DNA of 64,000 nucleotides from assembly GCA_016699245.1 (NCBI GenBank), contig CP064968.1, forward strand, positions 512,317-576,316, read 5' to 3'. Position numbers and translations under genes: made by a program. This stretch comes from Candidatus Kaiserbacteria bacterium. GTDB taxonomy: Bacteria; Patescibacteriota; Minisyncoccia; Phycocordibacterales; UBA918. The notes beneath the pieces are model-generated. The model was given only the letters and a program-made list of their open reading frames with translations, searched no databases and had not been told where the DNA came from. Shown piece after piece: positions 9,332-38,037 of the stretch (its first letter is position 1; the number at the start of each line of letters is the position of its first letter).

Positions 9332-9407
9332 TGGTGCCTCCACCCGGAATCGAACCAGGATTTTTTCCTTAGGACGGAATTGTTCTGATCCATTGAACTA
9401 TGGAGGC
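9332..9407 (-). tRNA. tRNA-Arg (anticodon CCT), CCA encoded
   Basis: Minus-strand reading GCCTCCA-TA-GTTC-AATGGATCA-GAAC-A-ATTCC-GTCCTAA-GGAAA-AAAT-CCTGG-TTCGATT-CCGGG-TGGAGGC-A-CCA. Anticodon loop is gTCCTAa, and the T-loop is the canonical TTCGATT. Confidence 0.8.
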
Positions 9408-20884: not shown

Positions 20885-21250
20885 AAAGCGCCCACATAAT
20901 GGGCACTTGTGTGTACGTTTATAAGCCGAATTCTGTCTGGAAAACCAGTGTGATCATTTACCTAGGCGCATTGTTGCCAATGCGCTCATGCGGCACTCCC
21001 TGGTGAAATGTGCAGAGCACTCTAAGTAGCAAACTACTCTATTTCACTGGGCACGGCCTTGCACACAAGTACGTATTTAGCCGTTTCATCCGAACTAAAT
21101 CGGTTCGTCACTGTTCGCAACGCTATGGTTACCCACGACGGGCGTTACCCGCTACTCTTCCAGGCTTTATCCTGGTGTGTGTTCGGACTTTCCTCCCCTC
21201 GTGCTTTTGGCGAAGGGCGATCACAAACGCATACAAACTATACAACATTT
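20885..21250 (-). ncRNA. rnpB: RNase P RNA (bacterial type)
   Basis: Minus-strand reading contains GAGGAAAGTCCGAACACA (P4, consensus GAGGAAAGUCCGGGCUCC), GGTAACGCCCG (consensus GGUAACGCC), and the 3' ACAGAATTCGGCTTATAA (consensus ACAGAACCCGGCUUAU), then a terminal hairpin. Ends are approximate. Confidence 0.75.
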
Positions 21251-22860: not shown

Positions 22861-23389
22861 AATAATCTGAGAACGTTATAAACAGTGGCTCATTTTCCAA
22901 ATCCTGCACACAGGTATCAAAGGCATATTGTTTGGCGTAATAGGTAATATTGTAGCGATAGCCCGTGCCATCATATTCCACAGGACACGCACCCGTGAAC
23001 GTAGTTTCTAAAAGGGATTCGAGATTAGTACTTTTGAGTGTTTTAAAAAGTGCAGTCTTTTCTCCCGTACTCAGTGTGTCGGCAAAGCGTGTCTCTCCGT
23101 CCTCACGGCTACGCACAATGTATTCATACGTACCATCATCAGAAATGCGGTACGACGCACACCCATCCCCGCGCGCGCAACCACCATACCGATATGCGGT
23201 CACTGAAAGAGCCGATGTTTCCTCAAGCACCACTTCCTCACCATCCCCTCCATTCCCATTATTCCCCGTGTTATTAAAAAGAAAAAGTATTGCCCCTGTC
23301 ACAAACCCAAAAACAAAGGTAGACAAGAGAATCACATACACATGCTTGGTCATAATCCTACTACGATACCCCCTTTCGATTTTTCCCAC
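22823..23389 (-). CDS. Hypothetical membrane-anchored protein
   Basis: N-terminal TM (HVYVILLSTFVFGFVTGAILFLF) followed by a Gly/Asn linker and a Cys-containing ectodomain. No recognisable family. Confidence 0.4.
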   Translation of the reverse strand: MGKIERGYRSRIMTKHVYVILLSTFVFGFVTGAILFLFNNTGNNGNGGDGEEVVLEETSALSVTAYRYGGCARGDGCASYRISDDGTYEYIVRSREDGETRFADTLSTGEKTALFKTLKSTNLESLLETTFTGACPVEYDGTGYRYNITYYAKQYAFDTCVQDLENEPLFITFSDYFEMFNNAYTTPE

Positions 23390-23428
23390 AAATGAGTTAC
23401 ACTATATGCCCCAGAGAAAAATACATAC

Positions 23429-23513
23429 GGAGGCGTCGCATAGTGGTCTAGTGCGCTCGCTTGGAAAGCGAGTAAGGTGAAAGCCTTCGAGGGTTCAAAT
23501 CCCTCCGCCTCCG
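23429..23513 (+). tRNA. tRNA-Ser (anticodon GGA), class II with long variable arm
   Basis: GGAGGCG-TC-GCA-TAGTGGTCTAG-TGC-G-CTCGC-TTGGAAA-GCGAG-[TAAGGTGAAAGCCTTC long variable arm]-GAGGG-TTCAAAT-CCCTC-CGCCTCC-G. Anticodon loop is ttGGAaa. Confidence 0.85.
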
Positions 23514-23822
23514 CTTGAGCTTCGCGAAAGCGGAGGCGGAGCACATGCTGGGAGCATGTGCGAAGGGATTTGAAGCCATTCAGAGATAATTTTGGAGCCG
23601 CAGGCGAACAAAAATATCCAGAATGGGTACTGAACATGTAATGTTCAAATCCCTCCGCCTCCGCAACGAACGAAGTGAGTGGAGGAGGTGGACAGTCTGG
23701 GAGACTGTCCAAGGATTTGAAGAGGTTGTCGATAGTTTCTGAAAGAAAATATCATACAACCTGAACAGAATCTGTGCCGCGTTCCAGTGAACGAAAAGAT
23801 TCAAATCCTCTCGCCTCCGCAC
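23514..23822 (+). repeat. Two tandem structured units downstream of tRNA-Ser, each re-using the tRNA 3' end and its reverse complement
   Basis: GTTCAAATCCCTCCGCCTCCGC (tRNA T-arm plus acceptor 3' strand) at 23492-23513 is repeated at 23643-23664 and, degenerate, at 23798-23820. Each is followed by its complement (gcggaggcggag / ggaggaggtgg), a GGGA-tetraloop hairpin (cacatgct-ggga-gcatgtg; ggacagtct-ggga-gactgtcc), and the T-loop complement (gggatttgaag). Confidence 0.5.
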
Positions 23823-23827
23823 ACAGC

Positions 23828-25273
23828 CTACTCGTCTACGGTGGGTATTTCTTCAAGTCCTGTATCTTCGATAATTTCCTCGGGGACTTCAGGTACAATC
23901 TGGGCAATCGGATCTTCAACATCCTCTGCAACTTCTTCTTCTAATGGCACCTCTTGAACTACTTCATCGGTAGTCACAGGAGGTATGGGCAACATCATGA
24001 GCGGTTCCACGGAGGGCAGCGCTCGAGGCAACGCTATAGGAGTAGGTGCGGTAAAGGTGAGCGATATCTTTTCACTATCATCATACCCCACACCAGTTGG
24101 ACCGGTGGCGTCCCACGCGGTGTATTCAATATCAATCACACATACCTCCCCCTCCCCAAAAGGACCGTAATTGACAGGTAGTGAAAGCGACAGGGTCCAC
24201 GGTTCATCAAATACGACATCTGAGGCACTGAGATTGACGAGTGACCCTTGATACATAAGCGGTGCACCAGCATCAACGAGTATCGACTGACAAAATAACG
24301 TATTATCACCTACAACATTCGTGTGCACACGGTACTTGATATCAGTACTTCCCTCCGCGGGTGTGACCACCGCGATAAGCGCGCCGTCTGCATCGTCAAG
24401 CTCACTTCCAATAAAGCTATATGCAGTGTCATTAACCGACAGTGTGAAATCAAGCGCTTGTGCCTGAAGTGTATTCTGCACAGAAGATTCTGAGTCGCCA
24501 AAATATGAAACCGTTGAACCTACAAACCCGAGACCGACAATACAAACGCTCGCAACCACAGAAAACGCCCCAATCGCAACGTCACCAAAAGACACAGAAT
24601 GACGCTTGGTATTTCGCACAACACTCATGGGGAGATGTCTTGCCTTGGTAACTGGCTGATACGACACTATTGGTCTTCCAATTTCTATCATACGTACTCT
24701 TTGTCGTGTGTCTGGCGGTAAATCCACACGCACGTCATGCACAACGACGCTTCCCGTATCATCTCCTTTGTCTTTTTTATTTTTTCGTATTTCTCGCCAA
24801 ATTTTCTCAATTTCACCAAAAATAATCATGAGTGCAGGTAGCACAATCAAGAAACCAAAGCCCATCGGTTGCCGTGCGAAGTCAAGAATGAATCCCACAT
24901 AGGGAACTGCAACAACCACCTCTCCCAGTATGGCGCTTAAAGGAATTTGTTCTGTATCCGCCTCTTCATTAGCATCGCCTTTGGTTGTAAACCAGGTTGT
25001 CCCATTACGTTCTTCACTACTCACAATTCTGTGTGTTGTTGGAATTTCTGCTGATGGACTTTTAAAGGTAATAACATCGTTAGTTTCATACTTTCCCGTT
25101 GGACCTATAACAACGACTGAGCCCGTAAGGATTGCAGGTTCCATTGACCCTGACTCAACAATCTTGATTTCAATTTTGGTATCGAGTGGTGAAAGTGGCG
25201 CCAAAAAGAGTCCCGCAACACCAATGAGCAGTACCGTGAAGAAACTATAGAAAATGGTGATGAAAATTTTCAT
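23828..25273 (-). CDS. sipW: SipW-type signal peptidase I (S26B) fused in one ORF to a TasA/camelysin-like domain that carries its own SipW-cognate signal
   Basis: N-terminal ~200 aa: TM, catalytic ESGSMEP, TTKGDANEEAD, second TM, as in SipW. From the internal Met at 24626-24628: n-region MSVVRNTKRHS, an h-region, then STVSYFGDSESSVQNTLQAQALDFTLS, which matches the SipW-cognate signal motif (GTxAxFSDxExSxxNxFxAGxLDL). Acidic C-terminal tail. Confidence 0.65.
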   Translation of the reverse strand: MKIFITIFYSFFTVLLIGVAGLFLAPLSPLDTKIEIKIVESGSMEPAILTGSVVVIGPTGKYETNDVITFKSPSAEIPTTHRIVSSEERNGTTWFTTKGDANEEADTEQIPLSAILGEVVVAVPYVGFILDFARQPMGFGFLIVLPALMIIFGEIEKIWREIRKNKKDKGDDTGSVVVHDVRVDLPPDTRQRVRMIEIGRPIVSYQPVTKARHLPMSVVRNTKRHSVSFGDVAIGAFSVVASVCIVGLGFVGSTVSYFGDSESSVQNTLQAQALDFTLSVNDTAYSFIGSELDDADGALIAVVTPAEGSTDIKYRVHTNVVGDNTLFCQSILVDAGAPLMYQGSLVNLSASDVVFDEPWTLSLSLPVNYGPFGEGEVCVIDIEYTAWDATGPTGVGYDDSEKISLTFTAPTPIALPRALPSVEPLMMLPIPPVTTDEVVQEVPLEEEVAEDVEDPIAQIVPEVPEEIIEDTGLEEIPTVDE

Positions 25274-25274
25274 A

Positions 25275-26501
25275 TTATCGTCGCGAAGGTCGGATCACAG
25301 GTGATGAGACGCCACTTGTTACGGGACTTACCACACTCGGTGTTTGTAGTACCGTAGGTTGCACTCCGGGTGTCGGACTTGCGGGTGTTTTGGTTTTCTT
25401 TGCGGGACGGTACTGGTTATCCACCTGGCAATAGAGGGTGCCGTCGTCGATATTCTTATTATCAATGACGATAGTTGTAGAGAACGTACTTCCCTTCTTG
25501 CATTCTCCATACCATCCTGGTCGCCAGTCACCCGCCACAAAGCCCACAGGCCCAACCTCAGTTATTGAATATGTCCCCAGAGGCAACTGTATTGTCCCAT
25601 TTGCTGAATCTACCGTGTAGGGAGTGAGTGTCACTGTTTGATTGATGCCTGCACCAACAACTTGGAATGTGAACTGCTGTGGCAAATACCCTTCTGGTAC
25701 GGGGCCACTGAATTTCTTTTCGAGGTTAAGCGTTACCGTAGGACCCACAGGTGGTGGAGGGACTGAACCATCGCATTGGTACTTTGGATAATCATCCGCA
25801 GTCACGCTACGAAGCGCAAGATCAACGGAAAAAGAATCCGTTTGTGCCCAATTGCCGAGGGCAGAGCCATCACACGTGACCTCGGCGGTTGCGGTATTAA
25901 CCGTTTGGTCACCCGCACACCACTCAATAGCAACATACTTGGTCACGTTCGCAGGAAAATAATTACCCGTAGTCGCGTCAGCGAGAATATATTTCTTGAG
26001 CACAGCAAAACCTGATTGCTCTGTAGTGGTGCCAAAGAGTGTCTTCTCCCCCACTTCATACGTATTATCACCATCGTCAAACCAACCGAAAAACTCTATT
26101 CCTTTCGAGAGTTCCCCTCCGAGTACGCCATCCACATCGAGGAGTGACTCTGGTTCATTATTTCCATTATCGTGGTCAACCAAGTTCGTAAAATCCATAC
26201 AGCCCCATGCATTTTTATCGACATGAAAACTGATGGTATTGATACCGCTATCCCCTGGCTTTATATCAGTGAAGTTAAAGAATTTATCAACACTGGGTAC
26301 GAGATTTTTTAATGCCCAGGTTTGTGATGGTTGCACGACACCATTATAGATTGCATAACTGTCTATCTTTAAATTGAGACCACCCGTAGCAAAGGTTGTA
26401 CCAATAAATCCCTTACTAAACATCATCACAAAAGCAAGGAATACCACTACCCCCACAATGAGGGCAATGCGTATTCCTGTTTTTGTATATGTGCGATTCA
26501 T
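25275..26501 (-). CDS. TasA/camelysin-like (SipW-cognate signal) secreted protein, paralog 1
   Basis: N-terminal TM then FSKGFIGTTFATGGLNLKIDS (variant SipW-cognate motif). Shares KFFNFTDIKPGDSGINTISFHVD and WCAGDQT...TCDGSALGN blocks with the other paralogs. Divergent Pro-rich C-terminus. Confidence 0.6.
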   Translation of the reverse strand: MNRTYTKTGIRIALIVGVVVFLAFVMMFSKGFIGTTFATGGLNLKIDSYAIYNGVVQPSQTWALKNLVPSVDKFFNFTDIKPGDSGINTISFHVDKNAWGCMDFTNLVDHDNGNNEPESLLDVDGVLGGELSKGIEFFGWFDDGDNTYEVGEKTLFGTTTEQSGFAVLKKYILADATTGNYFPANVTKYVAIEWCAGDQTVNTATAEVTCDGSALGNWAQTDSFSVDLALRSVTADDYPKYQCDGSVPPPPVGPTVTLNLEKKFSGPVPEGYLPQQFTFQVVGAGINQTVTLTPYTVDSANGTIQLPLGTYSITEVGPVGFVAGDWRPGWYGECKKGSTFSTTIVIDNKNIDDGTLYCQVDNQYRPAKKTKTPASPTPGVQPTVLQTPSVVSPVTSGVSSPVIRPSRR

Positions 26502-26602
26502 TTTTTTAGGTACTTATCGCTTCTTCTTTGGGCTATGGTGCTATGGGTTGCGTTCTATGGTTGAGTACTGAGGATGCGTCGAGGCATACGTATTCACCAA
26601 TA

Positions 26603-28017
26603 TTACTGACAGATAGGGCTGTAGAGTTTGATGTCGTCTATGAAACTGCCTTGTGAATTTGCGGTGCCAAGGTCGGTGAACTGAAGTCGAGTCACATTCG
26701 AAGTTGCAACAACATTCACCGTGATAACCTGCCATTCGATACCATCATTATTGTCTGCTACATTGCCGGTGTCGTGCACGACTGCTCCTCCCCACTTCAC
26801 CTCAACACGGTTTTCTGCCGATCCTGTGTTCGGACGCGCTGCAAAGGCAAACTTGATGCGGTACGGCCTTCCTATGACCGTTGGAATGTCTTGGTACATC
26901 GTGATGGATGCTGGCTCACCGGTACCACTGTCGCTTGGTCCTCCCCAGTCGCTGTCGAGCTCAGAATACTGGTCACCTTCATACGCACTGCCGAGTACGT
27001 TTTCATGTAACTCAAGTTTTGCAAGTGCGGGACGATTCTGGTTTCCAAATGTCGGGAGAACATCTCCACGCCATTCGATAGTCCAGCCATCGACAGGAGT
27101 CTGAAACACGTCCCATTTCTTTCCATTCGTCACCTCAGGAACTTCGAAACTGTAGTTCTCAAGAATATTTTCTGGTTGCTCTACAATGGTGCAGTTTTTG
27201 GTACACTCAAAGTTTGCATTATGCCTTGCCTGCACTGCTTCAAATACAATGTCGGCAGTGAGTGAGTCGGTCTGACTTTCATTACCGAGGGCAGTACCAT
27301 CGCAAGTATATCCACCGTCTTCGGGCTCGCCGATTGCCGATGTTCCACCGTTATTGTCTGCGGGAGAACTGTAATTACCTGTGGTAGTGGCGCAGGCACA
27401 ATCGTTCCAAAGCACCATGCTTTACCGATGTGTTTTGTTGTATTACCCGGAATAGGTCCTGCCTGATTTGTCCAGATGTTTTTCACGCTGTCGGCAAAGG
27501 TGAGTGCGTATGAATTGCCAACACCAAGTTGGCCAAAGTTGCCCGTATTGATAACGCTCTCACCCACCTCAAGCACGTTATCGCCATCATCAGCCCACCA
27601 GATGAAGTTGACGAGGCCGGCAAGTTCACCTTCGGTTGCACCAGTCGTTAGGTCGACGAGTGCCTCTGGCTCTGTCTGAGCATTCTCATTGTTTGAGGTG
27701 AGTGTGACATTCGCGCAGAGATATGCGTCATTCGTATCAACGTGAAGTGAGATAGTATCCTCTCCGTAGTCATCAGGCTTGAGGTCAAAAAAATTGAAAA
27801 ACTTCTCAATGGTGAGGTTGGTTGCATCCCATGAGGTAGTGCTTGTCGCAACGCCGTTGTAGTAACTTTCGTTGTCTACTTTGAGATCAATTGCCCCTGC
27901 GGTAAACACGTTTGCTACTGAGGTTTCGGTATCACTAAAGAACGCACTCGTTGCTCCGAACACCAGTCCGCCCGTTACCACCCCTATGAGTGCAAGACTG
28001 AGAATAATACGCTGCAT
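26603..28017 (-). pseudogene. TasA/camelysin-like paralog 2, disrupted by a frameshift near 27400-27420
   Basis: ORF 27181-28017 has the canonical N-terminus (GGLVFGATSAFFSDTETSVANVFTAGAIDLKVD...KFFNFFDLKPDD...KHIGKAWC) then runs into out-of-frame sequence. ORF 26603-27418 continues the family-conserved part (TCDGTALGNESQTDSLTADIVFEAVQARHNANFECT) in another frame. Confidence 0.55.
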
Positions 28018-28045
28018 AGTTTGATATATAAATAATTTATTAAAA

Positions 28046-28100
28046 TATGCTGGTTCCCGTCAGCCCGCTAAATCCCAGCCAAGCTGAGATTTAGTACGGC
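28046..28100. promoter_or_regulatory. Conserved structured intergenic motif between TasA-like paralogs (copy 1)
   Basis: tcagcccgctaaatcccagccaagctgagatttagtacggctag. It is ~90% identical to 29403-29450 and contains nested inverted repeats (cagc-cgaa-gctg; gctaaa/tttag). It lies ~60 nt upstream of the next paralog's start codon and downstream of the previous stop. Confidence 0.4.
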
Positions 28101-28109
28101 TAGTGAGGA

Positions 28110-29357
28110 CTAGTTTGGATTAGATACAACCAAGTTTGTAATAACGCACGTTGGATTAACACCTGATACAACATTCATGTTTGCAGTACCTATGTCATCA
28201 ATCTCTGCACAGCTACCACTGAACGACGCATTGTATTGAATTCCAACAGGATCATTTGAGTACACTTCAGAGACGACGTATGCTCCTGGAGTCAGGTTAG
28301 GAAATGCTACCTGATCAACCAAGATATGATCCCCGCCCGGACCAACCAAATGAAGTACGAAGTCGTTAACATCTACTCCTACAACTGAAGCCTGTGTAAA
28401 TTGAACAACTTTATCAAGAGTTACTGTTCCTGTCTCAACAACTACACGTGGTGTACATGTGAAGTTTGGATTGTTTCGAGCCTGTTCTACACGGAACGCA
28501 ATACTTGCTTCCATAGAGTCGGTCTGCACAATATTGCCCAAATTTGAACCATCGCAGGTAATTGTATTTCCCACGATAGCCTGTGTTCCTGCGCACCATG
28601 CTAGACCAATGTAGTTGGTCTGATTTGGTGCCATTGGTGTACTGTTGTTGAGTCCTGGCATAGCAAGCGGATAACTCTTTCCTCCAAGCACATCACTCGC
28701 TGGACCTGAGTCGTTTGAGAACAGAAGTGGCTCAGCTATTTCTCCTTGCCAAATATTATCTCCTTCACCAGCATCATCATTCAGTTCATTTTCATCTGAG
28801 TTCTGCCATCCAAGGGTAGCGCCCTGATCTAACCAAGCTGCGAACTTAATATTCTGCGCGAGTTCACCATCAAACATATCTGCATCTGGCTCACTTGCTT
28901 GAGTATCTAATTCAAGAACTTCTGCATCTTCTGGCTCATTCACTGTCATGTCATCATTCTTGGTGATATTTACATCAACACAAGCCCAAGCGGGGTTTGA
29001 ATCAATGTGAAGTGAAATAGTGTTTTCACCTTCATCACCAGGTTTTACATCTCGGAAATTAAAGAAAGTCTGTGCACCTAAGTCAGTTGCTTCCCAGGTA
29101 CCCGTACAAGGGAGACCAACTGGATACTCTGTACCACCCTGCCAAGTGTAATCAGTTAAATCGTTAGTAGTTAGAAGGTTTAACTGGCAAATACTACCAT
29201 TATAATGTGCTTCACTATCTACCGTTAGGTCAATTGCTCCGGCAGTAAAGACATTTCCTGTTGAGGTTTCTGTGTCAGAGAAGAATGCTCCTGTTCCTCC
29301 GACGATGAGGGCGCCCGCAAACACGAGCATCCCAACACTTGTAATAATTTTTTTCAT
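28110..29357 (-). CDS. TasA/camelysin-like (SipW-cognate signal) secreted protein, paralog 3
   Basis: MKKIITSVGMLVFAGALIVGGTGAFFSDTETSTGNVFTAGAIDLTVDSE. Conserved FFNFRDVKPGDEGENTISLHID, GLAWCAG...TCDGSNLGNIVQTDS and FRVEQARNNPNFTC blocks. Variable C-terminal beta domain. Confidence 0.7.
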   Translation of the reverse strand: MKKIITSVGMLVFAGALIVGGTGAFFSDTETSTGNVFTAGAIDLTVDSEAHYNGSICQLNLLTTNDLTDYTWQGGTEYPVGLPCTGTWEATDLGAQTFFNFRDVKPGDEGENTISLHIDSNPAWACVDVNITKNDDMTVNEPEDAEVLELDTQASEPDADMFDGELAQNIKFAAWLDQGATLGWQNSDENELNDDAGEGDNIWQGEIAEPLLFSNDSGPASDVLGGKSYPLAMPGLNNSTPMAPNQTNYIGLAWCAGTQAIVGNTITCDGSNLGNIVQTDSMEASIAFRVEQARNNPNFTCTPRVVVETGTVTLDKVVQFTQASVVGVDVNDFVLHLVGPGGDHILVDQVAFPNLTPGAYVVSEVYSNDPVGIQYNASFSGSCAEIDDIGTANMNVVSGVNPTCVITNLVVSNPN

Positions 29358-29402
29358 ACAATTATTAATTTATTTGTAATTAATACTTTTAATTTCCTGG
29401 TT

Positions 29403-29450
29403 CTTACCAGCCCGCTAAACCCCAGCCGAAGCTGAGATTTAGAACGGCTA
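29403..29450. promoter_or_regulatory. Conserved structured intergenic motif between TasA-like paralogs (copy 2)
   Basis: ccagcccgctaaaccccagccgaagctgagatttagaacggctag, near-identical to 28046-28100. Confidence 0.4.
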
Positions 29451-29457
29451 GAAATGA

Positions 29458-30963
29458 CTAGATAGCAGGCGCACCTAGGTATAGACGAGCATTATCGAAT
29501 GGCAAATCTGTAAACGGATTGTTTATAAACCATCCATATCGATTACCTCCAACTTCTGCTGGGATAGTGTCAGATGGATCACTTCGAGTCCATGAACCAA
29601 CCACTACGCCAAGACTATTGAGTACTTTCATATCTACAACCAGTACACCAGCTACGTCATGGAAGTAAGCTTGAAGTGTGTACCAACCGGTGGTGTTGAT
29701 AGCCACAGTTCCAACTCCATGTGGGTCACCAGGTGCGTTATTACTTGCATTTGCTGCCCATACACCTACTGCATTAGTACCAAGATGGAAAATAAAGTCA
29801 CGTTGATGATTTCCATCTGATCCATTACTTGCAGATGAGAAATCGAAACGCTTATCTATACCATCAGCATCTGCCATATCAAGATAGACATCTACTTCAG
29901 TTGTATAGCCACCAGCTGGAAATACTGATGAATATCCTCCCCATCGAGTAAAGATATCTCCATTAGCAAGACCATGTTTATTTCCATCAGAAGATGTAAC
30001 ACCACCTGTACCTGAATTTACGATACTGAATGTACCATCATTACTAAACCAGTACGGGTCACCTTGCTGTTCAAAACTTTCTGAAAAGACCAAATCTAAT
30101 GCTGGAGGAATATCTCCGCACGTAAAGTTAGGATTATTTCGTGCTTGTTCAACGCGGAACGCAATATTTGCAACCATAGAGTCAGTTTGCGCAATGTTGC
30201 CCATCGCACCACCGTTACAAGCAATTGTTCCGGCAACTGGCGTGGTGAGATCACCAGCACACCAAGCAAGCCCGACATAACTAGTACTTCCACCTACCAG
30301 TGCTCCGAGAATCGGAGAAGCAATTGTGTAGCTCTCACCATCGAGCACATCGCTCGCTGGACCACTACCATTTGAGAACAATGGTTGCTCATTTGCTTGC
30401 CAGATGTTATCTCCTTCACCTGGATCAGTACCTTGGAATCCTGGTGTTGCTCCGTAGTCTGCCCAAGCAAAAAATTCGATATTTTGAGCGAGCTCTCCAT
30501 CAAAGAGACTGCCGGTATTAACCGCGTCCCCTGCACCAAGTTCTGGTTCTACTGTACTCACATCATCATTAGCAACAAGTGACACATCGACACAAGCATA
30601 CGCATCATTGTTGTCTACATGAAGAGAGATAGTATTTTCTCCTTCGTCGCCTGGCTTGATGTCGGTAAAGTTAAAGAAAGTTTGCGCTCCCAAATTGGCT
30701 GGAAGCCAAGTTCCGGTACATGGTGAATTAAGGACTGGGTACTGTGGATTATCTTCAGTCTCTCCATCATCTAGCACCCATACTCCGTTTGTACAAACAG
30801 CATTGTTGTAGTGTTGTTCACTATCAACCTTTAAATCGATTGCTCCAGCGGTAAACAAGTTACCTGTTGAGGTTTCTGTATCACTAAAGAATGCGCCTGT
30901 GCCGCCAGCGACAAGTGCGCCGACGAAGACAATCATTCCCAAACTCATAATAATTTTTTTCAT
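29458..30963 (-). CDS. TasA/camelysin-like (SipW-cognate signal) secreted protein, paralog 4, with a long divergent C-terminal domain
   Basis: Likely start MKKIIMSLGMIVFVGALVAGGTGAFFSDTETSTGNLFTAGAIDLKVDSE at 30963. Conserved FFNFTDIKPGDEGENTISLHVD, GLAWCAG...ACNGGAMGNIAQTDS and FRVEQARNNPNFTC, then ~230 aa of unique C-terminus. Confidence 0.7.
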   Translation of the reverse strand: MKKIIMSLGMIVFVGALVAGGTGAFFSDTETSTGNLFTAGAIDLKVDSEQHYNNAVCTNGVWVLDDGETEDNPQYPVLNSPCTGTWLPANLGAQTFFNFTDIKPGDEGENTISLHVDNNDAYACVDVSLVANDDVSTVEPELGAGDAVNTGSLFDGELAQNIEFFAWADYGATPGFQGTDPGEGDNIWQANEQPLFSNGSGPASDVLDGESYTIASPILGALVGGSTSYVGLAWCAGDLTTPVAGTIACNGGAMGNIAQTDSMVANIAFRVEQARNNPNFTCGDIPPALDLVFSESFEQQGDPYWFSNDGTFSIVNSGTGGVTSSDGNKHGLANGDIFTRWGGYSSVFPAGGYTTEVDVYLDMADADGIDKRFDFSSASNGSDGNHQRDFIFHLGTNAVGVWAANASNNAPGDPHGVGTVAINTTGWYTLQAYFHDVAGVLVVDMKVLNSLGVVVGSWTRSDPSDTIPAEVGGNRYGWFINNPFTDLPFDNARLYLGAPAI

Positions 30964-31320
30964 GTGTATATAAATGCTATGTATAATGAATACCAATAAA
31001 CACGTTGGGGCTTCCTAAGCGCGTTCCCTACCACACGAGTATTCCCATAAAACGTCTGATAATAATATCGTATGCTGTCAAATCGAGGTATTTGAGGAAA
31101 AAAAGAAAAAATAGTACTCATTTTTGAGCAAATATGTGCATAAGTCGTAACAGCTTTGTTGAAGATACTGATTATTGTAAAATTTTGTATAGTTGATAAC
31201 GTGTGCTTAACGTGTGCTTAACAGATGTATATTCTGTTCATAGTGCTGTAGACAACACTTTTTGTAGGTAATAGAACACACAAAAAAAGAAGTTCAATAC
31301 GTGCGTATGACACTTCTTAA

Positions 31321-31959
31321 TTATTGCTTGAGTGAGGCGTATACAACGAGGTTGTGACTGTACTTCTCTTCTCCTTTGTCGTATGTTCCGGTACAGGTGA
31401 CCAAGCGAAGTGTTGGTGTGTCTGTACTGCCATAGACTAGTTCTGTGGGGAAATCATCCTGACTGTATCGTGCGAGAGAATCGACGGTAAATACAGCAAC
31501 ACTTCCGTCTTCACGTGTAATTTCTATCTCATCACCTGCTTCCAATTTTCTGAGTGGCCAAAATACTGCAGGTCCTTTGTATGAGTCCACGTGCCCCAGC
31601 ACCACTGCTGCCCCTACTTCACCCGGGGTCGGGCCGTTTTTGTACCACCCCACCTGTGTGTACGAATCGGGTACTTCAATAGTCTTATCTTCCTTCAGTC
31701 CAAGGGGCTTTTCAAATGTGGCCTCTACTTCAATTTTTGGAATAGAAATACGTGTCGGAGCCGAGCGAGAAAATGCGACTGATGTTGTTGCACTCGGTAC
31801 TTCAGACGTTGGTGCTTGTTGTGGCGACTCTTTCAAAAGAAAAAGAATTCCAAGACTACTCAGTGCTCCCACCACCATCCCCGCAACAGCAAACGCCACT
31901 ACCTTTTGGTACTGGCGGTTTGCTATACATGCACGTATGTTTTTGAATACATTAGCCAT
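31321..31959 (-). CDS. Sortase-family transpeptidase (membrane-anchored)
   Basis: N-terminal TM. Sortase His region AVVLGHVDS, conserved TLxTC catalytic motif PTLRLVTCTG, and a beta-barrel-like length of 212 aa. Overlaps by 8 nt with the upstream substrate gene. Confidence 0.6.
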   Translation of the reverse strand: MANVFKNIRACIANRQYQKVVAFAVAGMVVGALSSLGILFLLKESPQQAPTSEVPSATTSVAFSRSAPTRISIPKIEVEATFEKPLGLKEDKTIEVPDSYTQVGWYKNGPTPGEVGAAVVLGHVDSYKGPAVFWPLRKLEAGDEIEITREDGSVAVFTVDSLARYSQDDFPTELVYGSTDTPTLRLVTCTGTYDKGEEKYSHNLVVYASLKQ

Positions 31960-33232
31960 TCTTCACTTTTCGAACTGATGTTGAAAGAGGAAGGATTGCC
32001 GTGAGTATTGGGAATTGTACTGCGTGAGGAGCGGTTCCTCCAGCACCCGTGTTTGGTGCTCCAATAGGCATTATGCTCGTTGATTCACCGAGTACTTCAC
32101 CCTCTGGTTCATCATCATTATTATTGGAAGAGTGTCGTCTACTTCCGCGGCGAGGACCTGAACCATCGCTTCCACTACTTGAACTATCATCTTCTTGTAC
32201 ATTACCAAAGTTGTATGGACCGTATGTTGTGGGAAGTACCGATGCGTACGCTGTAGGAACCACAAAGTCCATTAGTTTTGCAAAGAAATGAGTCTCTTCA
32301 CTAAACGTAACCTCTCCAAGCACTTCTACCACATGCCCATTGACATTAGGAAATGTTTTACTCCATCCCTCTTCTATGATTTCGTTGATTGTCCATGTTC
32401 CCGCAGGCACATAAAAGTAATAGTATCCAGATGCATCAGTCGTTGTTGAATACGTTACACCACCGTTCGTTATTTGTACTGTCCATCCATCAAGATCGCT
32501 CTCATCATCCACTGGGTTTGGCTGTTCTACATCCCATGCATCATTTTCGTTTTCATCGTGCCATACGTATCCGAATACGAGCCATTTTGGAACGGTATTC
32601 TCTCCTCCACCATCGAGTGTGTTGGTAATCACACAGGTCACGGTCTCGTTTGCCTGAAGTGAAATTGCGGTGATAGGGCTTCCATCACTACACACCGCGC
32701 TTGTCTGTGTCCAGTTTGTCTCGAGTGTTTCAACAACATTGTATACGCCAACGGCCAATCCTGATTGAGTATGTTGTCCACCATCACTAAGTGTAAAATT
32801 CACTTCGCTCCAACTTGGATTAAAGGTGAAGACCGTCTGATTACCATCGGGAAGTGTTTGTTTTTCAATAATAATTGTTCCTTTTTCTCCTCCTCCAGTA
32901 TCACCGTTTAACGTGTTTGTAACGACACAGGTCACTGTTTCTCCCGATTGAAGTGCAATAGCGTTTATAGGGCTTCCGTCACTACATACCGCACTTGTCT
33001 GCGTCCATCCCGTTATCGGAGACTCCACAACACTATACGTTCCTGTCGCAAGCTTTGAAGAAGTGCTCTGTCCACCATCACTGAGTGTAAAATCCACGTC
33101 GCTCCAACTTGGATTAAAGGTGAAGAGAGTCTGATTACCATCTGGGATAGTCTGTTTTTGTATGATGATAGTCCCTTTGTCTGGGTCACCATTTCCGCCT
33201 CCGTTATATGTATTGGTAATGACACACGTCAC
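31952..33232 (-). CDS. Sortase-substrate surface protein, C-terminal part: three tandem Ig-like repeats and a cell-wall sorting signal. Probably one gene with 33262-34026, split by a frameshift
   Basis: Three ~95-aa tandem repeats (TCVITNT...GTIIIEKQTIPDGNQT.FTFNPSWS.V.FTLSDGGQ...GWTQTSAVCSDGSPI). C-terminus is PIGAPNTGAGG, then a hydrophobic stretch (AVQFPILTAILPLSTSV), then a basic tail RKVKNG: sorting-signal architecture. The repeat reading frame continues upstream of the annotated Met (AQLATTDHGWTQTSAVCTDGSP). Confidence 0.6.
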   Translation of the reverse strand: MTCVITNTYNGGGNGDPDKGTIIIQKQTIPDGNQTLFTFNPSWSDVDFTLSDGGQSTSSKLATGTYSVVESPITGWTQTSAVCSDGSPINAIALQSGETVTCVVTNTLNGDTGGGEKGTIIIEKQTLPDGNQTVFTFNPSWSEVNFTLSDGGQHTQSGLAVGVYNVVETLETNWTQTSAVCSDGSPITAISLQANETVTCVITNTLDGGGENTVPKWLVFGYVWHDENENDAWDVEQPNPVDDESDLDGWTVQITNGGVTYSTTTDASGYYYFYVPAGTWTINEIIEEGWSKTFPNVNGHVVEVLGEVTFSEETHFFAKLMDFVVPTAYASVLPTTYGPYNFGNVQEDDSSSSGSDGSGPRRGSRRHSSNNNDDEPEGEVLGESTSIMPIGAPNTGAGGTAPHAVQFPILTAILPLSTSVRKVKNG

Positions 33233-33261
33233 TGTTTCGTTTGCCTGAAGTGAAATAGCGT

Positions 33262-34026
33262 TTATAGGACTTCCATCAGTACAGACCGCGCTTGTCTGTG
33301 TCCACCCATGATCCGTGGTGGCAAGTTGTGCTTTTGTTCGCCATCACCACATAAGTCAACTACATCCCAGCTTGGATTAAACGTAAAATCAGTCTGATTA
33401 CCATCAGGAATAGTCTGCTTTTCTATGATGATAGTTCCTCTGTCAGGATCACCATTTTCATACTCGCAAGACCCATCATTCTCTTCAGCTGCGGGGTCGT
33501 AGTTTGTAGCTTCCGAGTCAGTACAGCCGAGTATTGGAGCAGGTTCCCCTGGCCACTGATTGTCAGCTTTGCAGGCATTACCGACGTCATCTGCGAGTGG
33601 ATAGTCGACACTGGTTTCAACCACAGTAATCTCTATCGGCCGTACAGGTCCATTCCCATCATTGGCTGTCTCGCAGCCAGGACCAGACCACTGAAGTGTC
33701 CAATCCGCGGGTACAAATCCCGCAGGACCAACTTCTGAAACGGTGTGGGTCCCCGCAGTAAGATAGACCACTTTTTCAGCAGTATCAGGAGTTAACGCAT
33801 CTAATGTAACGATACCGTAACCACTGACATTGAATTTAAATTCGTCGGCTGTATATGGATCAGGGGTGTAGTTATCACTGATGCTTTTCGTAAGCTTAAA
33901 TGGATATGTTGCTACTGTAGCCTCTGCTGTCGTAGGTTGTACAAGTTGAAACGCGACGAACACGGTAAGGAGCAGTGTTGCGAAGAGCGCAACACGCGCA
34001 AACTTAAGATTGATACGAGTAATCAT
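33262..34026 (-). CDS. Sortase-substrate surface protein, N-terminal part (signal peptide plus first repeat), frameshifted relative to 31952-33232
   Basis: Signal peptide (FARVALFATLLLTVFVAFQLVQPTTAEA). Ends with GTIIIEKQTIPDGNQTDFTFNPSW, i.e. runs into the same repeat unit before losing frame around 33300-33340 (near gatggcgaacaaaag). Confidence 0.55.
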   Translation of the reverse strand: MITRINLKFARVALFATLLLTVFVAFQLVQPTTAEATVATYPFKLTKSISDNYTPDPYTADEFKFNVSGYGIVTLDALTPDTAEKVVYLTAGTHTVSEVGPAGFVPADWTLQWSGPGCETANDGNGPVRPIEITVVETSVDYPLADDVGNACKADNQWPGEPAPILGCTDSEATNYDPAAEENDGSCEYENGDPDRGTIIIEKQTIPDGNQTDFTFNPSWDVVDLCGDGEQKHNLPPRIMGGHRQARSVLMEVL

Positions 34027-34154
34027 AGTAAAAAATATTAATACCTCTAAATAATTATAGTGACCCTACTCGGTACTATGCTTTGTTTCAACAATACAAC
34101 GTATAATTTTGTTTAGCAATTGACAAAATTTAAAACTGTGATGATGAACTAATC

Positions 34155-37100
34155 TTATCTGAAGAAACCAAAAACGTTCTTCACAAATCCGGCAACACCC
34201 CCCTGTTTTTGCTCTGCTGGCGCTTGTGCGGTTGGTTTCGGTTCAGGTGTTGGAGCAGGTGCTGGAGTCGGTGCTGGTGCTGGTGGTACGTACTTTGGCT
34301 TTGGCGCCACAGGAGCCGGTACCGGAGCGGTTATAGAAGCACCCGCAACGGCTGGGTTTGCGTTCGTTGGGAAAGCGAGTGTCAACTTCAAGATGGTAGA
34401 TGGCACCGTGAATGTGTACTCTCGACTCGTGGTAACAAACGTATCACTTTGTGCGTGGATGCGGTACGCATACGTACGACCCGGTTGAAGATTCGTTATA
34501 ATCATCACATGTTTTGGTCTCACGGTAGGGAACTTGAAACTTGCGTACGGATAGCCCATGTTGAGTGCACTTTGGTTATAGGGTGAGACTGCTTGTGCGA
34601 CACCATAGAATACCTGGCTTAATGAAGGCTTTGACGTCTCCCATGTCGCAAGTGCTGAGACGGTTCCATTTGCTCCGGGGAAGTATGCAAGAACGGAAAC
34701 GTTGCCGACTGCAAGATCAAGTCCTTTTACCTGTATGGTGTACACGGCATCTTTAATTTTCAGTGGAGCTTTCTTCGCCTCCTTCATGCCGTCCTTAAGG
34801 TATGCTTTTATACTTGCGGTATTGGTATACATGCCACTTGGCGTGTTTTCATTGTACTCAGTGGTATACGTGAGTTTAATCACTTCACCAGGGAGTATGG
34901 TATCAAGCACCCACGACTGCTCAGCCACAATTGACCCAATCGGATTTGTGAGCACATCAAATACCTCAACGTCATACGCATTGCCTCCCGTATTGGTAAC
35001 CGTAATCTTGTAGTCAACACTTTCTCCTGCGTTTACAACATCCCCTTCATCAACGTTGACAGCATCTTTCTTAATAACGAGATGCGGTGCCTTACTTGGA
35101 TCAATTGCTTTTACTTCTGCACGCTCAACTTTTGTTTTCTTTGGACCTCCGCTTTTACCACCGCTCGGTGAAGTTTGTGAAGGTGTTTGTGTAGTACTAG
35201 TATCAGTATTCCCTTCCTCACCACCTCCCACGGGGTCAGTGGTGCCCGTACCATCGTCGGTCGTTGTTCCGGTACCATTACCCGTCGTTGTGCCTGTACC
35301 ATTCCCGGTAGTTGTTCCGGTACCAGTGCCACTACCTGTCGTTGTACTTGTTGTCGAACCCGTTCCTCCTCCGCCTGAACCAGCCGGTTGTGGTTTAAAC
35401 GCGTCTTTACTCAGCATGAGCGAGTTGTCAGCGATGTTTTCATCACCTTTATCACTCGAGACAGCGGCATACGCAGTAACGGTAGTAGTGCCAAAAGGAA
35501 TATCTGAGTTTACGATTGCGGTGAGGACACCTTGCTTACTCTGGCCCGGCTCTATACTACCCAAAGACTTGCTCTGTGTAGTTCCATTTGAGGTTGTACG
35601 CGCCGACTCGAGTACTTGATCAATCACCACGTTGGTTGCAGTCGTGTTGCTATGGTTTGTCACCGTGTATGTATAGGTAAGTGTGTCACCAATACCAAGC
35701 GATGCGTCTGAAGCGGAGACAGTACCGGTAAGCGCGATGTCAGTGGCTGCAAAAGAAACATTTCCTTCAAAATCTCCAAGAATGTTGATGACCGCAAACG
35801 TCCAGTTCGTACCGATGATGTTGGTGTTTGCAATGTTCATCACGTTTGCACTTGCAAAAGCGTTTCCGGTGTTGATGCTTCCAATCAATGCATCAATGTC
35901 GTTCTCCCCCGTGATGGCATTGATAGAAAGATTGTTTTCAAGCGCAACACGGTTGTTGTTATCAAAATTTGCGGTATATGCATCGAGGTCTTTCGTACTG
36001 AGAAATTCGGATGGAGTAATCTCAGCATCTGCATTGTATATAACAATTCCTTGCGGTGTCCATTCCCACAGGAGACCCTCAGGGAGACCAACGACATCTC
36101 CACTCCACACACCATGCACACGGATAAGCATGTACATTGAATCACCACCGTAGGTGTTTTCATTAATCTTATTGAGCACGTTCGATTCAGACTCTGCCCT
36201 TCCCGTGGTGATATTTGATGCAAAAGATGTTGTTGACTCATTCAGTCCCGTTTCAGCATAAGCATCGATATTATTATCCACCACGGCATCATTCAGGTTG
36301 TTCACACGCACATTGAAGTCTTCATATTTCCCCTGTCGGCTTTCTTCAGAAACAGCTATGCCGTTTGCGCGTCCAAAAAATGCGTCAAAAAGTTCTCCTG
36401 TGGGGAGCACGAGGTCACCCTCGAGGTCGCCAATAGCGTTATAGGTAAAAAGTCTATAGTTGGAGTCAATGATGTTGCTGTTAACGACGTTGATGACGTT
36501 TGCTGCCGCGTAGGCGTCACCCGTGGTAATCTCTGCGCTTGAAATTCCCACTGCTTCATTGTAACCAGTCACTGCTTCCACAACGGCGTTGTTGGTGATG
36601 GTTGCATTATTCATCTGCGATACGTTGTACACAACATCTTCAGCAATACATGAAAGCAATGAACAGGTGTTTGAAAGTGCCTCTTCCTGTGCTGGATCGG
36701 GGAAAAATGAACTCGTGAGGTCGAGTGATTGACCTTCATCGAGGATTTTGTTCGCGAGATAAATAAAGCCATTCGAGTTGATGACGTTGGTATTGACCAC
36801 GTTTGCGATATTAAACGCTGCAATCGAATCTCCCGTGTTCACTTCCGCAGTACTTCGTCCTCGAGCATAGTTGTCACCAGAGGTGGAGCGAGTTAAACCA
36901 TCGTTCGTTATAATTGCGTCATTGGTGCCTGTGGCAACAAAGGTATAGATATCAAAATCATTTGGAACAGGACCGATGAGTTCACTGCGAATATCGTTTG
37001 AGTTTGCGTCAGTGGAAAGCTCTCCCTGTGCAGTCGCGATTCCCGTCTCAATAAGCGCAAAAGTCTCTCTTTGTGTTATATCACCCGTAGTTTCTTCTTC

Positions 37101-37535
37101 TTGAGGAACACCAACATCCCCAAGTAGTCCGTCGGAAATAATGTCAACAGGCGTTATTTCATCATCGGGCGTTGCCCCTGCGGTCGCATCAGCTCCGTCT
37201 TGACCTTGCGGTGTCGTTTCAGGGGTTTCTTCTGATGGTGATTCTACTGCAACTGGTGATGCTTCAGATGATGGGGTGTTTTCTGTAATCACCGGGTCAG
37301 GAATTATTTCTGGAGGTGTCGTTTCGGTATCAGGTACTCCTCCTGCTGTGCCGTCATTCCCTTCTTGTCCATCTACACCTTGGGATGGAATCTCTATAGT
37401 AGTGGGTTCTACAGGTGGTAGCGTGTCCTCAGCAAAAACAGCGAGCGGAATGAGCGACGAGAGTATTGAGACGATAATTATCGTCGCCAAAAAGCGATTT
37501 AATTTCTCCGCTACTTTAAAATAGTATGCTGACAT
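34155..37535 (-). CDS. Giant (1126 aa) cell-surface protein with beta-helix-like N-x-N repeats, DUF11-like domains, a Gly/Thr low-complexity linker and a Pro-rich C-terminus
   Basis: N-terminal signal anchor. ~5 repeats of the type N.A.I.N...TG.N.A......TG.A.AANV.NVVN.N.I.SN. Two DUF11-like segments (TYTYTVTNHSNTTATNVVIDQVL; DYKITVTNTGGNAYDVEVFDVL). TGSGTGTGTTTGNGTG linker. PAPAPTPAPAPTPEPKP tail. Confidence 0.55.
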   Translation of the reverse strand: MSAYYFKVAEKLNRFLATIIIVSILSSLIPLAVFAEDTLPPVEPTTIEIPSQGVDGQEGNDGTAGGVPDTETTPPEIIPDPVITENTPSSEASPVAVESPSEETPETTPQGQDGADATAGATPDDEITPVDIISDGLLGDVGVPQEEETTGDITQRETFALIETGIATAQGELSTDANSNDIRSELIGPVPNDFDIYTFVATGTNDAIITNDGLTRSTSGDNYARGRSTAEVNTGDSIAAFNIANVVNTNVINSNGFIYLANKILDEGQSLDLTSSFFPDPAQEEALSNTCSLLSCIAEDVVYNVSQMNNATITNNAVVEAVTGYNEAVGISSAEITTGDAYAAANVINVVNSNIIDSNYRLFTYNAIGDLEGDLVLPTGELFDAFFGRANGIAVSEESRQGKYEDFNVRVNNLNDAVVDNNIDAYAETGLNESTTSFASNITTGRAESESNVLNKINENTYGGDSMYMLIRVHGVWSGDVVGLPEGLLWEWTPQGIVIYNADAEITPSEFLSTKDLDAYTANFDNNNRVALENNLSINAITGENDIDALIGSINTGNAFASANVMNIANTNIIGTNWTFAVINILGDFEGNVSFAATDIALTGTVSASDASLGIGDTLTYTYTVTNHSNTTATNVVIDQVLESARTTSNGTTQSKSLGSIEPGQSKQGVLTAIVNSDIPFGTTTVTAYAAVSSDKGDENIADNSLMLSKDAFKPQPAGSGGGGTGSTTSTTTGSGTGTGTTTGNGTGTTTGNGTGTTTDDGTGTTDPVGGGEEGNTDTSTTQTPSQTSPSGGKSGGPKKTKVERAEVKAIDPSKAPHLVIKKDAVNVDEGDVVNAGESVDYKITVTNTGGNAYDVEVFDVLTNPIGSIVAEQSWVLDTILPGEVIKLTYTTEYNENTPSGMYTNTASIKAYLKDGMKEAKKAPLKIKDAVYTIQVKGLDLAVGNVSVLAYFPGANGTVSALATWETSKPSLSQVFYGVAQAVSPYNQSALNMGYPYASFKFPTVRPKHVMIITNLQPGRTYAYRIHAQSDTFVTTSREYTFTVPSTILKLTLAFPTNANPAVAGASITAPVPAPVAPKPKYVPPAPAPTPAPAPTPEPKPTAQAPAEQKQGGVAGFVKNVFGFFR

Positions 37536-38037
37536 AGGTAATTAACATTAACTGCAATGAAAAAAGTGCCTCCGAAAACTTCGAAAATACACTTTGAGAT
37601 GCATCTTCACTCGTCGTATTTTGGAAGTTTTCAAGAACCAAAGTTTCGGTAGTCGTGGTTGTGTGTGTTGCAAAAACAAAAGACGAGTCAGCGGGTGAAG
37701 ATTGAGTTTTTTGAATATCTAAAACTGGTACTTCATCCACAGTAGATTCGATGATACTTGAAGCATGGTTTATATTGTTTTTGGTAACAATACTGCCTGA
37801 TGTTCCTGGTGCACCATCTGTCCCAGGTTTTCCATCTTCACCATCTTGGCCACTTTGGCCATCTTCACCATCTTGACCCCTTTGGTGTATCCCGCCAGTG
37901 TTCTCACTTGTATACACGACGTTTGTAATGAGGTGTGCATCATCTGCACATACACGTTCTGTCGCAACTGTACTAAAAACAGCCACAATTGCAAGCACGA
38001 CAAATATTTGTTTGTAATTTCTCACTGATTGCATCAT
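37516..38037 (-). CDS. Small secreted collagen-like (G-x-x) repeat protein
   Basis: Signal peptide (IFVVLAIVAVFSTVATERVCA). Motif DDAHLITNVVYTSENTGGIHQRG is followed by the G-x-x tract GQDGEDGQSGQDGEDGKPGTDGAPGTSG. The N-terminal motif is shared with the neighbouring genes. Confidence 0.5.
   Translation of the reverse strand: MMQSVRNYKQIFVVLAIVAVFSTVATERVCADDAHLITNVVYTSENTGGIHQRGQDGEDGQSGQDGEDGKPGTDGAPGTSGSIVTKNNINHASSIIESTVDEVPVLDIQKTQSSPADSSFVFATHTTTTTETLVLENFQNTTSEDASQSVFSKFSEALFSLQLMLITYVSILF

Follow-up and report, generated by a model that had tools for sequence, protein, structure and literature searches.

We analyzed a tandem array of four paralogous genes, here designated A to D, together with the SipW-type signal peptidase gene that follows them in the genome of Candidatus Kaiserbacteria (CP064968.1). 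The window is the whole stretch of 64,000 nucleotides (nt) under analysis, and all coordinates are window positions. The proteins of the locus are found at NCBI as IPH92_02610 to IPH92_02630 (QQR64438-QQR64444), with 100% identity. An initial annotation, made by a model from the letters of the sequence, had described four TasA-like paralogs. The four open reading frames (ORFs) are indeed present on the minus strand, with the start of A most likely at ATG 30963 (501 amino acids (aa), as in QQR64443.1) and not at TTG 30996. In 5' to 3' order, the locus comprises the following features.

34155-37535, minus strand: 1126-aa DUF11/DUF7507 surface protein, the first in 5' to 3' order.
31952-34026, minus strand: SpaA-repeat sortase-substrate surface protein, split by a 1-nt deletion; recognized by three-frame translation, repeat comparison, and weak SpaA-family Pfam matches.
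31321-31959, minus strand: class F sortase, scoring 189.7 bits with NF033748 (cutoff 166).
29458-30963, minus strand: paralog A, 501 aa; the SipW-type signal and donor strand precede a TasA-like core (282 aa), after which comes a C-terminal module of 219 aa.
29386-29460, minus strand: RNA motif copy 1, beginning at the stop codon of A; minimum free energy (MFE) -28.6 kcal/mol, z -4.36; 80.7 bits with covariance model R1.
28110-29357, minus strand: paralog B, 415 aa; its signal and donor strand lead into a core of 301 aa, and the C-terminal domain (114 aa) is SpaA/prealbumin-like.
28039-28112, minus strand: RNA motif copy 2, beginning at the stop codon of B; MFE -26.5 kcal/mol, z -3.88; 87.7 bits with covariance model R1.
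26603-28017, minus strand: paralog C, 471 aa if repaired, in which a core is joined to a domain resembling DUF642, CBM6, and choice-of-anchor C; the gene is interrupted at 27379/27380 by the loss of 1 nt.
25275-26501, minus strand: paralog D, 408 aa; hydrophobic at the N-terminus, where the signal motif is degenerate, followed by a 243-aa core, a SpaA_2-like domain, and a tail rich in Pro, Ser, and Thr.
23828-25273, minus strand: SipW-type (archaeal/endoplasmic reticulum (ER)-type) signal peptidase I, 481 aa, with a third transmembrane helix, a YFGDSESS motif, an immunoglobulin (Ig)-like domain (aa 270-410), and an acidic tail.

The stop codon of D and the start codon of the peptidase gene are 1 nt apart. 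The cores of the four paralogs align over 243-301 aa (BLASTP E-values of 1e-35 to 1e-115), with 59% identity between A and B and 32-37% in the remaining pairs, and the similarity thus reaches far past the signal peptide. The blocks KPGD...TISLHVD, AWCxG, TCDG..LGN..QTDS, and F.VEQAR.NPNF.C are present in the array paralogs and are invariant or nearly so among 98 family members. These pairwise alignments bear out the shared conserved blocks described initially, and the possibility raised at the same time, that the likeness might be limited to the signal peptide, does not hold.

The N-termini of A, B, and C match the SipW-dependent signal model TIGR04088 (24.9, 27.8, and 24.2 bits, respectively, against a cutoff of 19) and the TasA family PF12389 (33.4, 28.7, and 23.0 bits against a gathering cutoff of 22.5; the match in A covers aa 2-49). 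Each of these three proteins has a SipW-dependent signal, with a gene for a SipW-like peptidase nearby. D matched neither TIGR04088 nor PF12389; its core is 32-34% identical to those of A-C, and it retains the hydrophobic helix and the FATGGLNLKIDS strand without the FFSDTETS segment. The processing motif ascribed to all four paralogs by the initial annotation is thus found in A, B, and C but not in D.

The adjacent peptidase scored 100.5 bits against TIGR02228 (cutoff 51.85), and its catalytic residues S43 (in SGSMEP), H81, D100, and D106 are invariant or nearly so in 111 homologs. The equivalog model of the Bacillus SipW, NF046067, gave 101.8 bits, below its cutoff of 190. In Foldseek searches, the AlphaFold 2 (AF2) model of the peptidase matched human SEC11 (SEC11A/C, 7p2q_A) and the Streptococcus pyogenes SipA structure 4n31. 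We regard the catalytic domain as that of a bona fide SipW/SEC11-type enzyme. Past this domain, the protein continues with a disordered linker, a third transmembrane helix, a SipW-type motif (TVSYFGDSESSVQNTLQAQALDF), and a confidently modeled Ig-like sandwich at aa 270-410. The motif, the fifth of its type in the locus, lies at aa 240-271 and scored 16.4 bits against the TIGR04088 cutoff of 19; it is nearly invariant in the 111 homologs and modeled with low confidence, and the C-terminal domain has two cysteines that are invariant in the same set. Foldseek matched the Ig-like domain to the chaperones FimC, FaeE, and Caf1M and to the pilins AggA, MrkA, and CsuA/B. Of the 82 SipW genes found in the loci examined, 32 include the Ig-like domain as a fusion, and 34 have a separate gene for it directly downstream; it was undetected in 12, and in 4 cases the locus was too short. 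Its occurrence as a fusion in some genomes and as a separate gene in others points to a functional partnership with SipW. The possibility that the C-terminal domain of SipW is a truncated TasA-like core was considered and rejected, the common score coming from the first ~33 positions (the motif) only.

Pairwise BLAST found no similarity among the C-terminal parts of the four paralogs (219 aa in A, 114 in B, 199 in C, and 165 in D), in agreement with the unrelated C-terminal halves noted initially. The further description of these halves as hypervariable was not upheld, as they correspond to SpaA-like (B and D), DUF642/CBM6-like (C), and widespread unnamed (A) modules. The domain of B is SpaA/prealbumin-like: its orthologs carry PF19403, and its model matches Gram-positive pilins. 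The domain of D is weakly SpaA_2-like and has a counterpart at the N-terminus of the protein encoded at 33262-34026, with 35% identity over 107 aa (E 1.6e-13), so that one module is used on both export and anchoring routes of the locus, by the SipW-dependent D and by its sortase-dependent neighbor. The domain of C resembles choice-of-anchor C (TIGR04362, 5e-13, below its cutoff), with weak CBM_6 and DUF642 matches. The module of A (aa 286-501, window 29458-30108) had no match in Pfam, NCBIfam, or the PDB. Cluster representatives with this module number 1003 (771 of them at E <= 1e-10); they are 212-5710 aa long and hold it singly or in repeats. Some have SLH or Big_7 domains, and some a more canonical camelysin-like domain; this ~200-aa module is a candidate new extracellular domain family. 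Family-wide, the core stands alone (about 290-310 aa) or is joined to SpaA_2, VWA, PF22842, or other modules. We read the C-termini from these comparisons as discrete shuffled domains rather than hypervariable tails. None of A-D has a C-terminal sorting signal; the proteins end in ...LGAPAI, ...VSNPN, ...SPICQ, and ...IRPSRR, respectively, without the motif, the hydrophobic stretch, or the basic tail.

A SipW profile scan of GTDB species genomes returned 415 loci, and the best 80 were analyzed with hidden Markov models of the core, the signal motif, and the C-terminal domains. All 80 of these best loci are labeled as coming from candidate-phyla lineages or as unclassified. Gene order was counted in 58 species-level Paceibacteria arrays that are not cut off by the end of the locus. 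These arrays contain 1-4 genes, most often 3, and show a recurrent order of A/B-type, C-type, D-type, and SipW peptidase: the last array gene is D-type in 44 of 58, the penultimate is C-type in 49 of 56, and those ahead of them belong to the A/B type or are C-like. Of the non-last genes, 106 of 107 have the canonical signal motif, compared to only 17 of 58 last genes. A sortase as a core component of the array was rejected, being encoded near it in only 9 of 83 loci as an occasional neighbor.

Homologs at E <= 0.001 numbered at least 1,914 for query B and at least 2,028 for query C, and those with a named organism all came from candidate phyla (Patescibacteria-type), save one NCBI record labelled Acetobacteraceae. 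For the repaired C, over 100 orthologs were found that are intact along their full length (463-490 aa) and up to 78% identical (the best being P0121), and orthologs of B reach 75% identity. One locus, L001, carries A-like, B-like, C-like (72%), and D-like (52%) genes and SipW in the same order, although its SipW is only 42% identical. A literature search returned no description of such arrays in the candidate phyla radiation (CPR); the sole mention was that PF12389 occurs in Patescibacteria (PMC9245690).

These data bear on the proposal, made in the initial annotation, that the array arose by recent tandem duplication, with hypervariable C-termini and with the frameshift in paralog 2 (C) possibly serving as a reversible phase-variation switch. 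Tandem paralogs on the same strand with a repeated intergenic sequence would be expected under this proposal. However, the core identities are only 32-59%, each paralog is closer to its orthologs elsewhere (52-78%) than to its array neighbors, and position-specific orthologs occur in distant genomes, with the gene order kept in the 58 loci. Given these low identities, the position-specific orthologs in other species, and the recurrent order, we consider the array to be old and conserved and not a set of recent duplicates, and a recent duplication coupled to a switch to be very improbable.

We interpret the four genes as the subunit genes of an ancient conserved operon for SipW-dependent TasA-like surface proteins, a reading to which we assign a probability of roughly 70%. 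At the sequence level, the likeness to TasA is restricted to the N-terminus, where hhalign places B on the signal and donor strand of TasA. In the AF2 model of B (mean predicted local distance difference test score (pLDDT) of 87), aa 25-37 are the sole low-confidence segment of the core, with values below 50. This segment lies directly past the predicted cleavage site and matches the TasA donor strand, and its lack of structure in a monomer model is what would be expected of a strand that needs a partner. Foldseek matched the model of B to the TasA fiber form 8aur_A with a probability of 0.99 (E 5.8e-3, 239 columns) and also to Gram-positive pilins. The models suggest that the core likely works like TasA. 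The assignment of A-C to the TasA family (PF12389) appears justified only in part, and the matches to this family reach only profile positions 4-51 of 196. The initial view of a tandem array of TasA-like, SipW-dependent paralogs thus stands in terms of function and only partly in terms of formal family membership.

Several observations weigh against this interpretation. The hhalign comparison of the family profile with Bacillus subtilis TasA (whose sequence was checked against 8AUR) extends over 46 N-terminal columns only, with a probability of 52.7% and an E-value of 1.4e-4, and the family profile has no match among PDB sequences at E <= 10; neither comparison thus found sequence homology to TasA over the whole mature domain. 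The Foldseek match of B to 8aur_A ranks 25th, with a TM-score of 0.44 and a root-mean-square deviation of 8.3 A. The Ig-like fold is common, and the chaperone-usher matches of the SipW-fused domain are weak (E about 1e-3, TM-scores of 0.33-0.48). No T run that would indicate an intrinsic terminator follows the RNA motif in 21 aligned copies, and none was found there in a terminator scan. Both frameshifts of the window lie in the surface locus while 20 other ORFs tested look intact, which also fits real decay.

The same weak similarity to TasA past the N-terminus would suit another explanation, under which A-D are not fiber subunits but independent secreted or cell-bound adhesins or enzymes, such as proteases of the camelysin kind or carbohydrate-binding proteins, that share a SipW-dependent signal and a scaffold. 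Pfam files the N-terminal match under Peptidase_M73, 'camelysin', and the C-terminal modules resemble carbohydrate-binding and adhesin domains. No HExxH-type metalloprotease motif was present in the sequences examined, however, and the unstructured conserved strand after the cleavage site, together with the match to the fiber form of TasA, fits donor-strand subunits. The strict gene order with a hairpin past the first genes also mirrors pilus operons. We therefore consider independent adhesins or enzymes unlikely.

The two copies of the RNA motif, at 29386-29460 and 28039-28112, have folding z-scores of -4.4 and -3.9, with 0 chance matches expected. Each forms a 5-bp outer stem, AGCCG/CGGCU, around a 12-bp hairpin, and the flanks TAGCCGT and GCGGGCTG are nearly invariant. 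The initial annotation had reported a near-identical structured 45-nt motif between the paralogs. The motif is structured and repeated, as stated, but it measures about 60-75 nt and has only two copies, with none after C. Beginning with the two window copies, we searched 1.28 Mb by nhmmer and then by a covariance model and found 51 plus-strand copies in about 40 loci. In 44 of the 51 copies, the motif starts at most about 27 nt from where array gene 1 or 2 ends, in many cases directly at its stop codon; it was never located 3' of a C- or D-type gene. Compensatory changes were observed in 12 of 17 base pairs in a 21-sequence alignment and in 14 of 17 in a 60-sequence alignment. Paired cells amounted to 96.6-98.5% compared to 29-52% in slid controls, and none of 500 shuffles reached as high a value. 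This covariation indicates selection on RNA (or single-strand) pairing rather than on the sequence alone. No Rfam 15 family matched the motif at gathering thresholds, and a permissive scan of 27990-29500 gave chance-level hits only (E >= 0.42). The hairpin is a previously unlisted covarying RNA. The repeated intergenic sequence thus represents a conserved functional RNA and not the scar of a duplication, which is a further point against recent duplication.

In pap-type pilus operons, a stem-loop lies past the major pilin gene papA. By analogy, our guess is that the hairpin determines how much of the major subunits is made relative to the minor ones, through stabilization or termination of the upstream transcript. 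Hairpin-guided read-through of the stop codon was considered and rejected, because the distances from the stop codon to the motif (1, 7, 9, 16, 19, 22, 26, and 27 nt) do not keep a consistent frame among species. A promoter and terminator scan of 23300-34300 gave fewer sites than in shuffled sequence.

Comparison with two Logan contigs from close relatives (L002 and L003) revealed how the array content varies. Their DNA is 89.6% identical to the window over SipW, D, C, and the second hairpin (23858-28121) and 88-92% identical over 30835-32654, a block that takes in the sortase region and the initial 129 nt of A. In place of window positions 28122-30834, both contigs carry one 264-aa core-only gene (1687-2481 in L002, 938-1732 in L003), which replaces A, hairpin 1, and B and is only 37% identical to A. 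The breakpoints of this replacement fall in the conserved signal-peptide coding region and at the hairpin, and the exchange looks cassette-style. The swap of A and B for a single gene suggests that the leading subunit position turns over by replacement. On the sequences compared here, we take leading-subunit replacement, and not frameshifting, to be the source of strain-level variation at this locus.

The position of the breakpoints, at ~30835 in the signal-peptide coding region and at ~28121 where the hairpin starts, would also be consistent with a hairpin that serves primarily as an anchor for recombination and cassette exchange or as a protein-binding regulatory site, and the flanks TAGCCGT and GCGGGCTG are more invariant than pairing alone demands. 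On the other hand, the compensatory covariation reveals selection on pairing, and the two roles are compatible. We consider it doubtful that anchoring or protein binding is the primary role of the hairpin.

The frameshift in paralog C was mapped by alignment. One frame (27181-28017) encodes the core up to AWCFGTIVPAPLPQ, and the other (26603-27418) continues with NYSSPADNN...TCDG. According to 12 orthologs and the DNA alignment with L002 and L003, the window lacks one base at the junction of 27379 and 27380, where CCACAG-A-GTAATTAC (PQSNYSS) in the relatives stands against CCACAGGTAATTAC in the window; the missing A is flanked by G's in the relatives. The change of frame between the AWC and TCDG blocks that was noted initially is therefore real in the deposited sequence, but its position is 27379/27380 and not 27400-27420. 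C is intact in both close relatives, which are ~90% identical in DNA.

These properties also bear on the suggested on/off variation. The junction of CCACAG and GTAATT contains no simple repeat tract. A programmed -1 frameshift is contradicted by the lack of an X XXY YYZ heptamer and by the more than 100 orthologs that are single ORFs. The ratio of nonsynonymous to synonymous substitution rates (dN/dS) of C between the window and L002 is 0.107 upstream and 0.067 downstream of the shift (0.10-0.17 in neighboring genes), and the low downstream value indicates that this half of C has not drifted and is still under purifying selection. In the absence of a repeat tract or slippery site, with relatives intact and purifying selection downstream, the sequence evidence favors an assembly error or a very recent lesion over an on/off device, and we consider the frameshift neither programmed nor a phase-variable switch; the suggested on/off variation is thus not supported at this CAG/GTA site.

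A C-type gene of another genome, L050 (Candidatus Yonathbacteria PFQT01000059.1; 2-841 and 676-1371), is frameshifted in the same AWCxG...TCDG loop, at a G5 run (CCGGGGGAG). This parallel, together with the location of both window frameshifts in surface-protein genes, would be in favor of the switch. The probability that two genomes share the loop by chance is about 7%, and the parallel is probably a coincidence. The frameshifts in the window C and in L050 are the only genuine-looking ones in about 250 core genes. A split C-type gene in L006 was rejected as a frameshift, as it reflects a scaffolding gap with a run of N.

A second 1-nt deletion was located within 33328-33339, in the A4 run at 33332-33335, where it splits the sortase-substrate gene (31952-34026) into 33262-34026 and 31952-33232. 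Addition of one A restores a 691-aa sortase substrate with an IGAPNTG sorting signal. The 20 other ORFs at suspicious frame overlaps in the window have complete unsplit Pfam domains or no match. Searches for exact copies of B, SipW, and the sortase turned up no second assembly of the strain, and seven repaired versions of C were absent from a collection of 15 billion proteins.

The two lesions could be genuine and mark the very recent loss of subunit C and of a sortase-anchored adhesin in the course of surface-locus turnover. In this respect, both fall within the same 13-kb surface locus while complete domains are seen in 20 other ORFs, the lesion in C is outside any homopolymer, and the array content differs between close relatives, as L002 and L003 have the 264-aa gene in place of A and B. 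L050, the assembly of which we take to be Illumina-based, likewise has a broken C-type gene. In contrast, the 1.4 kb of C contain no further disabling change, its downstream dN/dS is 0.067, and two 1-nt deletions, one of them in an A4 run, are the typical residual error of a long-read consensus; a single-contig 1.05-Mb metagenome-assembled genome suggests long-read assembly. Since both lesions are deletions in an assembly that we presume to be of this type, we lean slightly toward an uncorrected consensus error in C, with a very recent real loss only somewhat less probable.

The locus can be compared with several known systems. As in the Bacillus subtilis operon tapA-sipW-tasA (8AUR, 5OF1) and the sipW-tasA-calY operon of B. 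cereus, an archaeal/ER-type peptidase is encoded beside its substrates. Like the Bacillus TasA operons, the array also encodes several paralogous substrates; these bear a TIGR04088-type signal and, behind it, a conserved strand that can be aligned to the donor strand of TasA, and their beta-rich core has a moderate fold match to the TasA fiber subunit. The array differs from Bacillus TasA in its larger core (243-301 aa), which is TasA-like by sequence only over about 46 residues, in the Cys-containing blocks AWCxG, TCDG, and NFxC, and in the extra C-terminal domain of each protein. It also has 2-5 subunit genes whose types stand in a fixed order, SipW in last position with an Ig-like domain attached to it or encoded next, a hairpin past the first genes, and as its host a cell-wall-poor, ultra-small CPR bacterium.

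The archaeal bundling pili (ABP) of Pyrobaculum calidifontis, AbpA/AbpB, have a jelly-roll subunit of the TasA superfamily, polymerized by donor-strand insertion, and a larger partner with distal beta domains that was proposed as an adhesin or initiator (Wang et al. 2022, PMC9245690). The ABP operon, unlike the array, is without a dedicated peptidase (PMC9245690), and the ABP subunits have about 200 aa and no C-terminal modules. We found no sequence-level link between AbpA/AbpB and the array proteins.

Chaperone-usher operons (pap, fim) resemble the array in having the major-subunit gene first, a stable hairpin, and minor or adhesin subunits downstream, and the SipW-fused Ig-like domain matches their chaperones and pilins by fold (weakly, E about 1e-3). 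The array differs from them by the lack of an usher and a periplasm, by another subunit fold, and by the conserved flanks of a hairpin that appears operon-specific. The SpaA/prealbumin-like C-terminal domains of B and D, and the sortase with its LPXTG-like substrate directly upstream, recall sortase-assembled SpaA pili, but A-D are without a sorting signal and a sortase stands beside the array in only 9 of 83 loci. We conclude that the locus is a variant of TasA/SipW operons that includes a so far undescribed RNA motif and a peptidase fused to a partner domain.

Under our preferred interpretation of the array as an operon for SipW-dependent TasA-like surface proteins, each protein would be exported by its N-terminal hydrophobic helix, and A, B, and C would be cut by the adjacent archaeal/ER-type signal peptidase. 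The predicted cut in B falls after A24, between GTGA and FFSDTE, in alignment with the TasA site between A27 and A28. The freed strand, FFSDTETSTGNxFTAGAIDL, would then insert into the neighboring subunit, as in TasA fibers. The jelly-roll-like cores would polymerize in this way, each subunit displaying its own C-terminal binding module, which may be unnamed lectin-like, SpaA-like, or DUF642/CBM6-like. D, which is without the cleavage-proximal motif and is encoded next to SipW, is for these reasons the best candidate for a membrane-retained base subunit. The SipW-fused Ig-like domain, with its own SipW-type motif, may be either a fifth substrate or an assembly partner. The hairpin at the stops of A and B would most likely set the stoichiometry, as a 3'-end stabilizer, a processing site, or a partial terminator.

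A more elaborate model, which we regard as speculative and improbable as a whole, would make the products a CPR-specific heteropolymeric surface fiber, with the SipW-Ig-like fusion as a combined processing and assembly platform, D as the membrane-retained base, interchangeable major subunits of the A/B type swapped from strain to strain by recombination at the signal-peptide region and the hairpin, and the hairpin as an RNA family that governs stoichiometry. If it were true, the SipW-Ig-like platform would be a minimal single-membrane analogue of the chaperone-usher machine.

The surroundings of the array contain other features. A gene for a small protein with collagen-like repeats (37516-38037, minus strand) overlaps the start of the gene for the 1126-aa surface protein (34155-37535, minus strand) by 20 nt, and from this overlap the surface-protein neighborhood appears to reach past the array. 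Just past SipW, exactly at the synteny break with the close relative L002, there are two copies of a Y-shaped structured element (23487-23585 and 23637-23725, plus strand; MFE -61.8 kcal/mol, z -7.8, and -40.4 kcal/mol, z -5.3) and a degenerate third (23799-23820). In both copies, the opening 22 nt duplicate without mismatch the final 22 nt of tRNA-Ser(GGA), which is located at 23429-23514. These elements may be remnants of an integration site or a repetitive extragenic palindrome (REP)-like element. The remaining context is that of an ordinary chromosome, with a bacterial RNase P class A RNA (20906-21235, minus strand), tRNA-Phe (8738-8811, minus strand), tRNA-Arg (9332-9407, minus strand), and a complete ParE toxin gene (95-385, plus strand).

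Paceibacteria (Parcubacteria) are abundant ultra-small bacteria that are thought to live attached to other cells. The present analysis removes a false lead, as the array is neither young nor phase-variable by the evidence given above, and it points to two places in a deposited complete genome where a single base is probably missing in error (or was lost very recently). The operon, with its 415 loci in GTDB species genomes, its fixed subunit order, its peptidase-partner pair, and its non-Rfam RNA, provides testable candidates for CPR surface fibers. If the model of a heteropolymeric fiber is true, this fiber would be a prime candidate for the attachment of Paceibacteria to their hosts.

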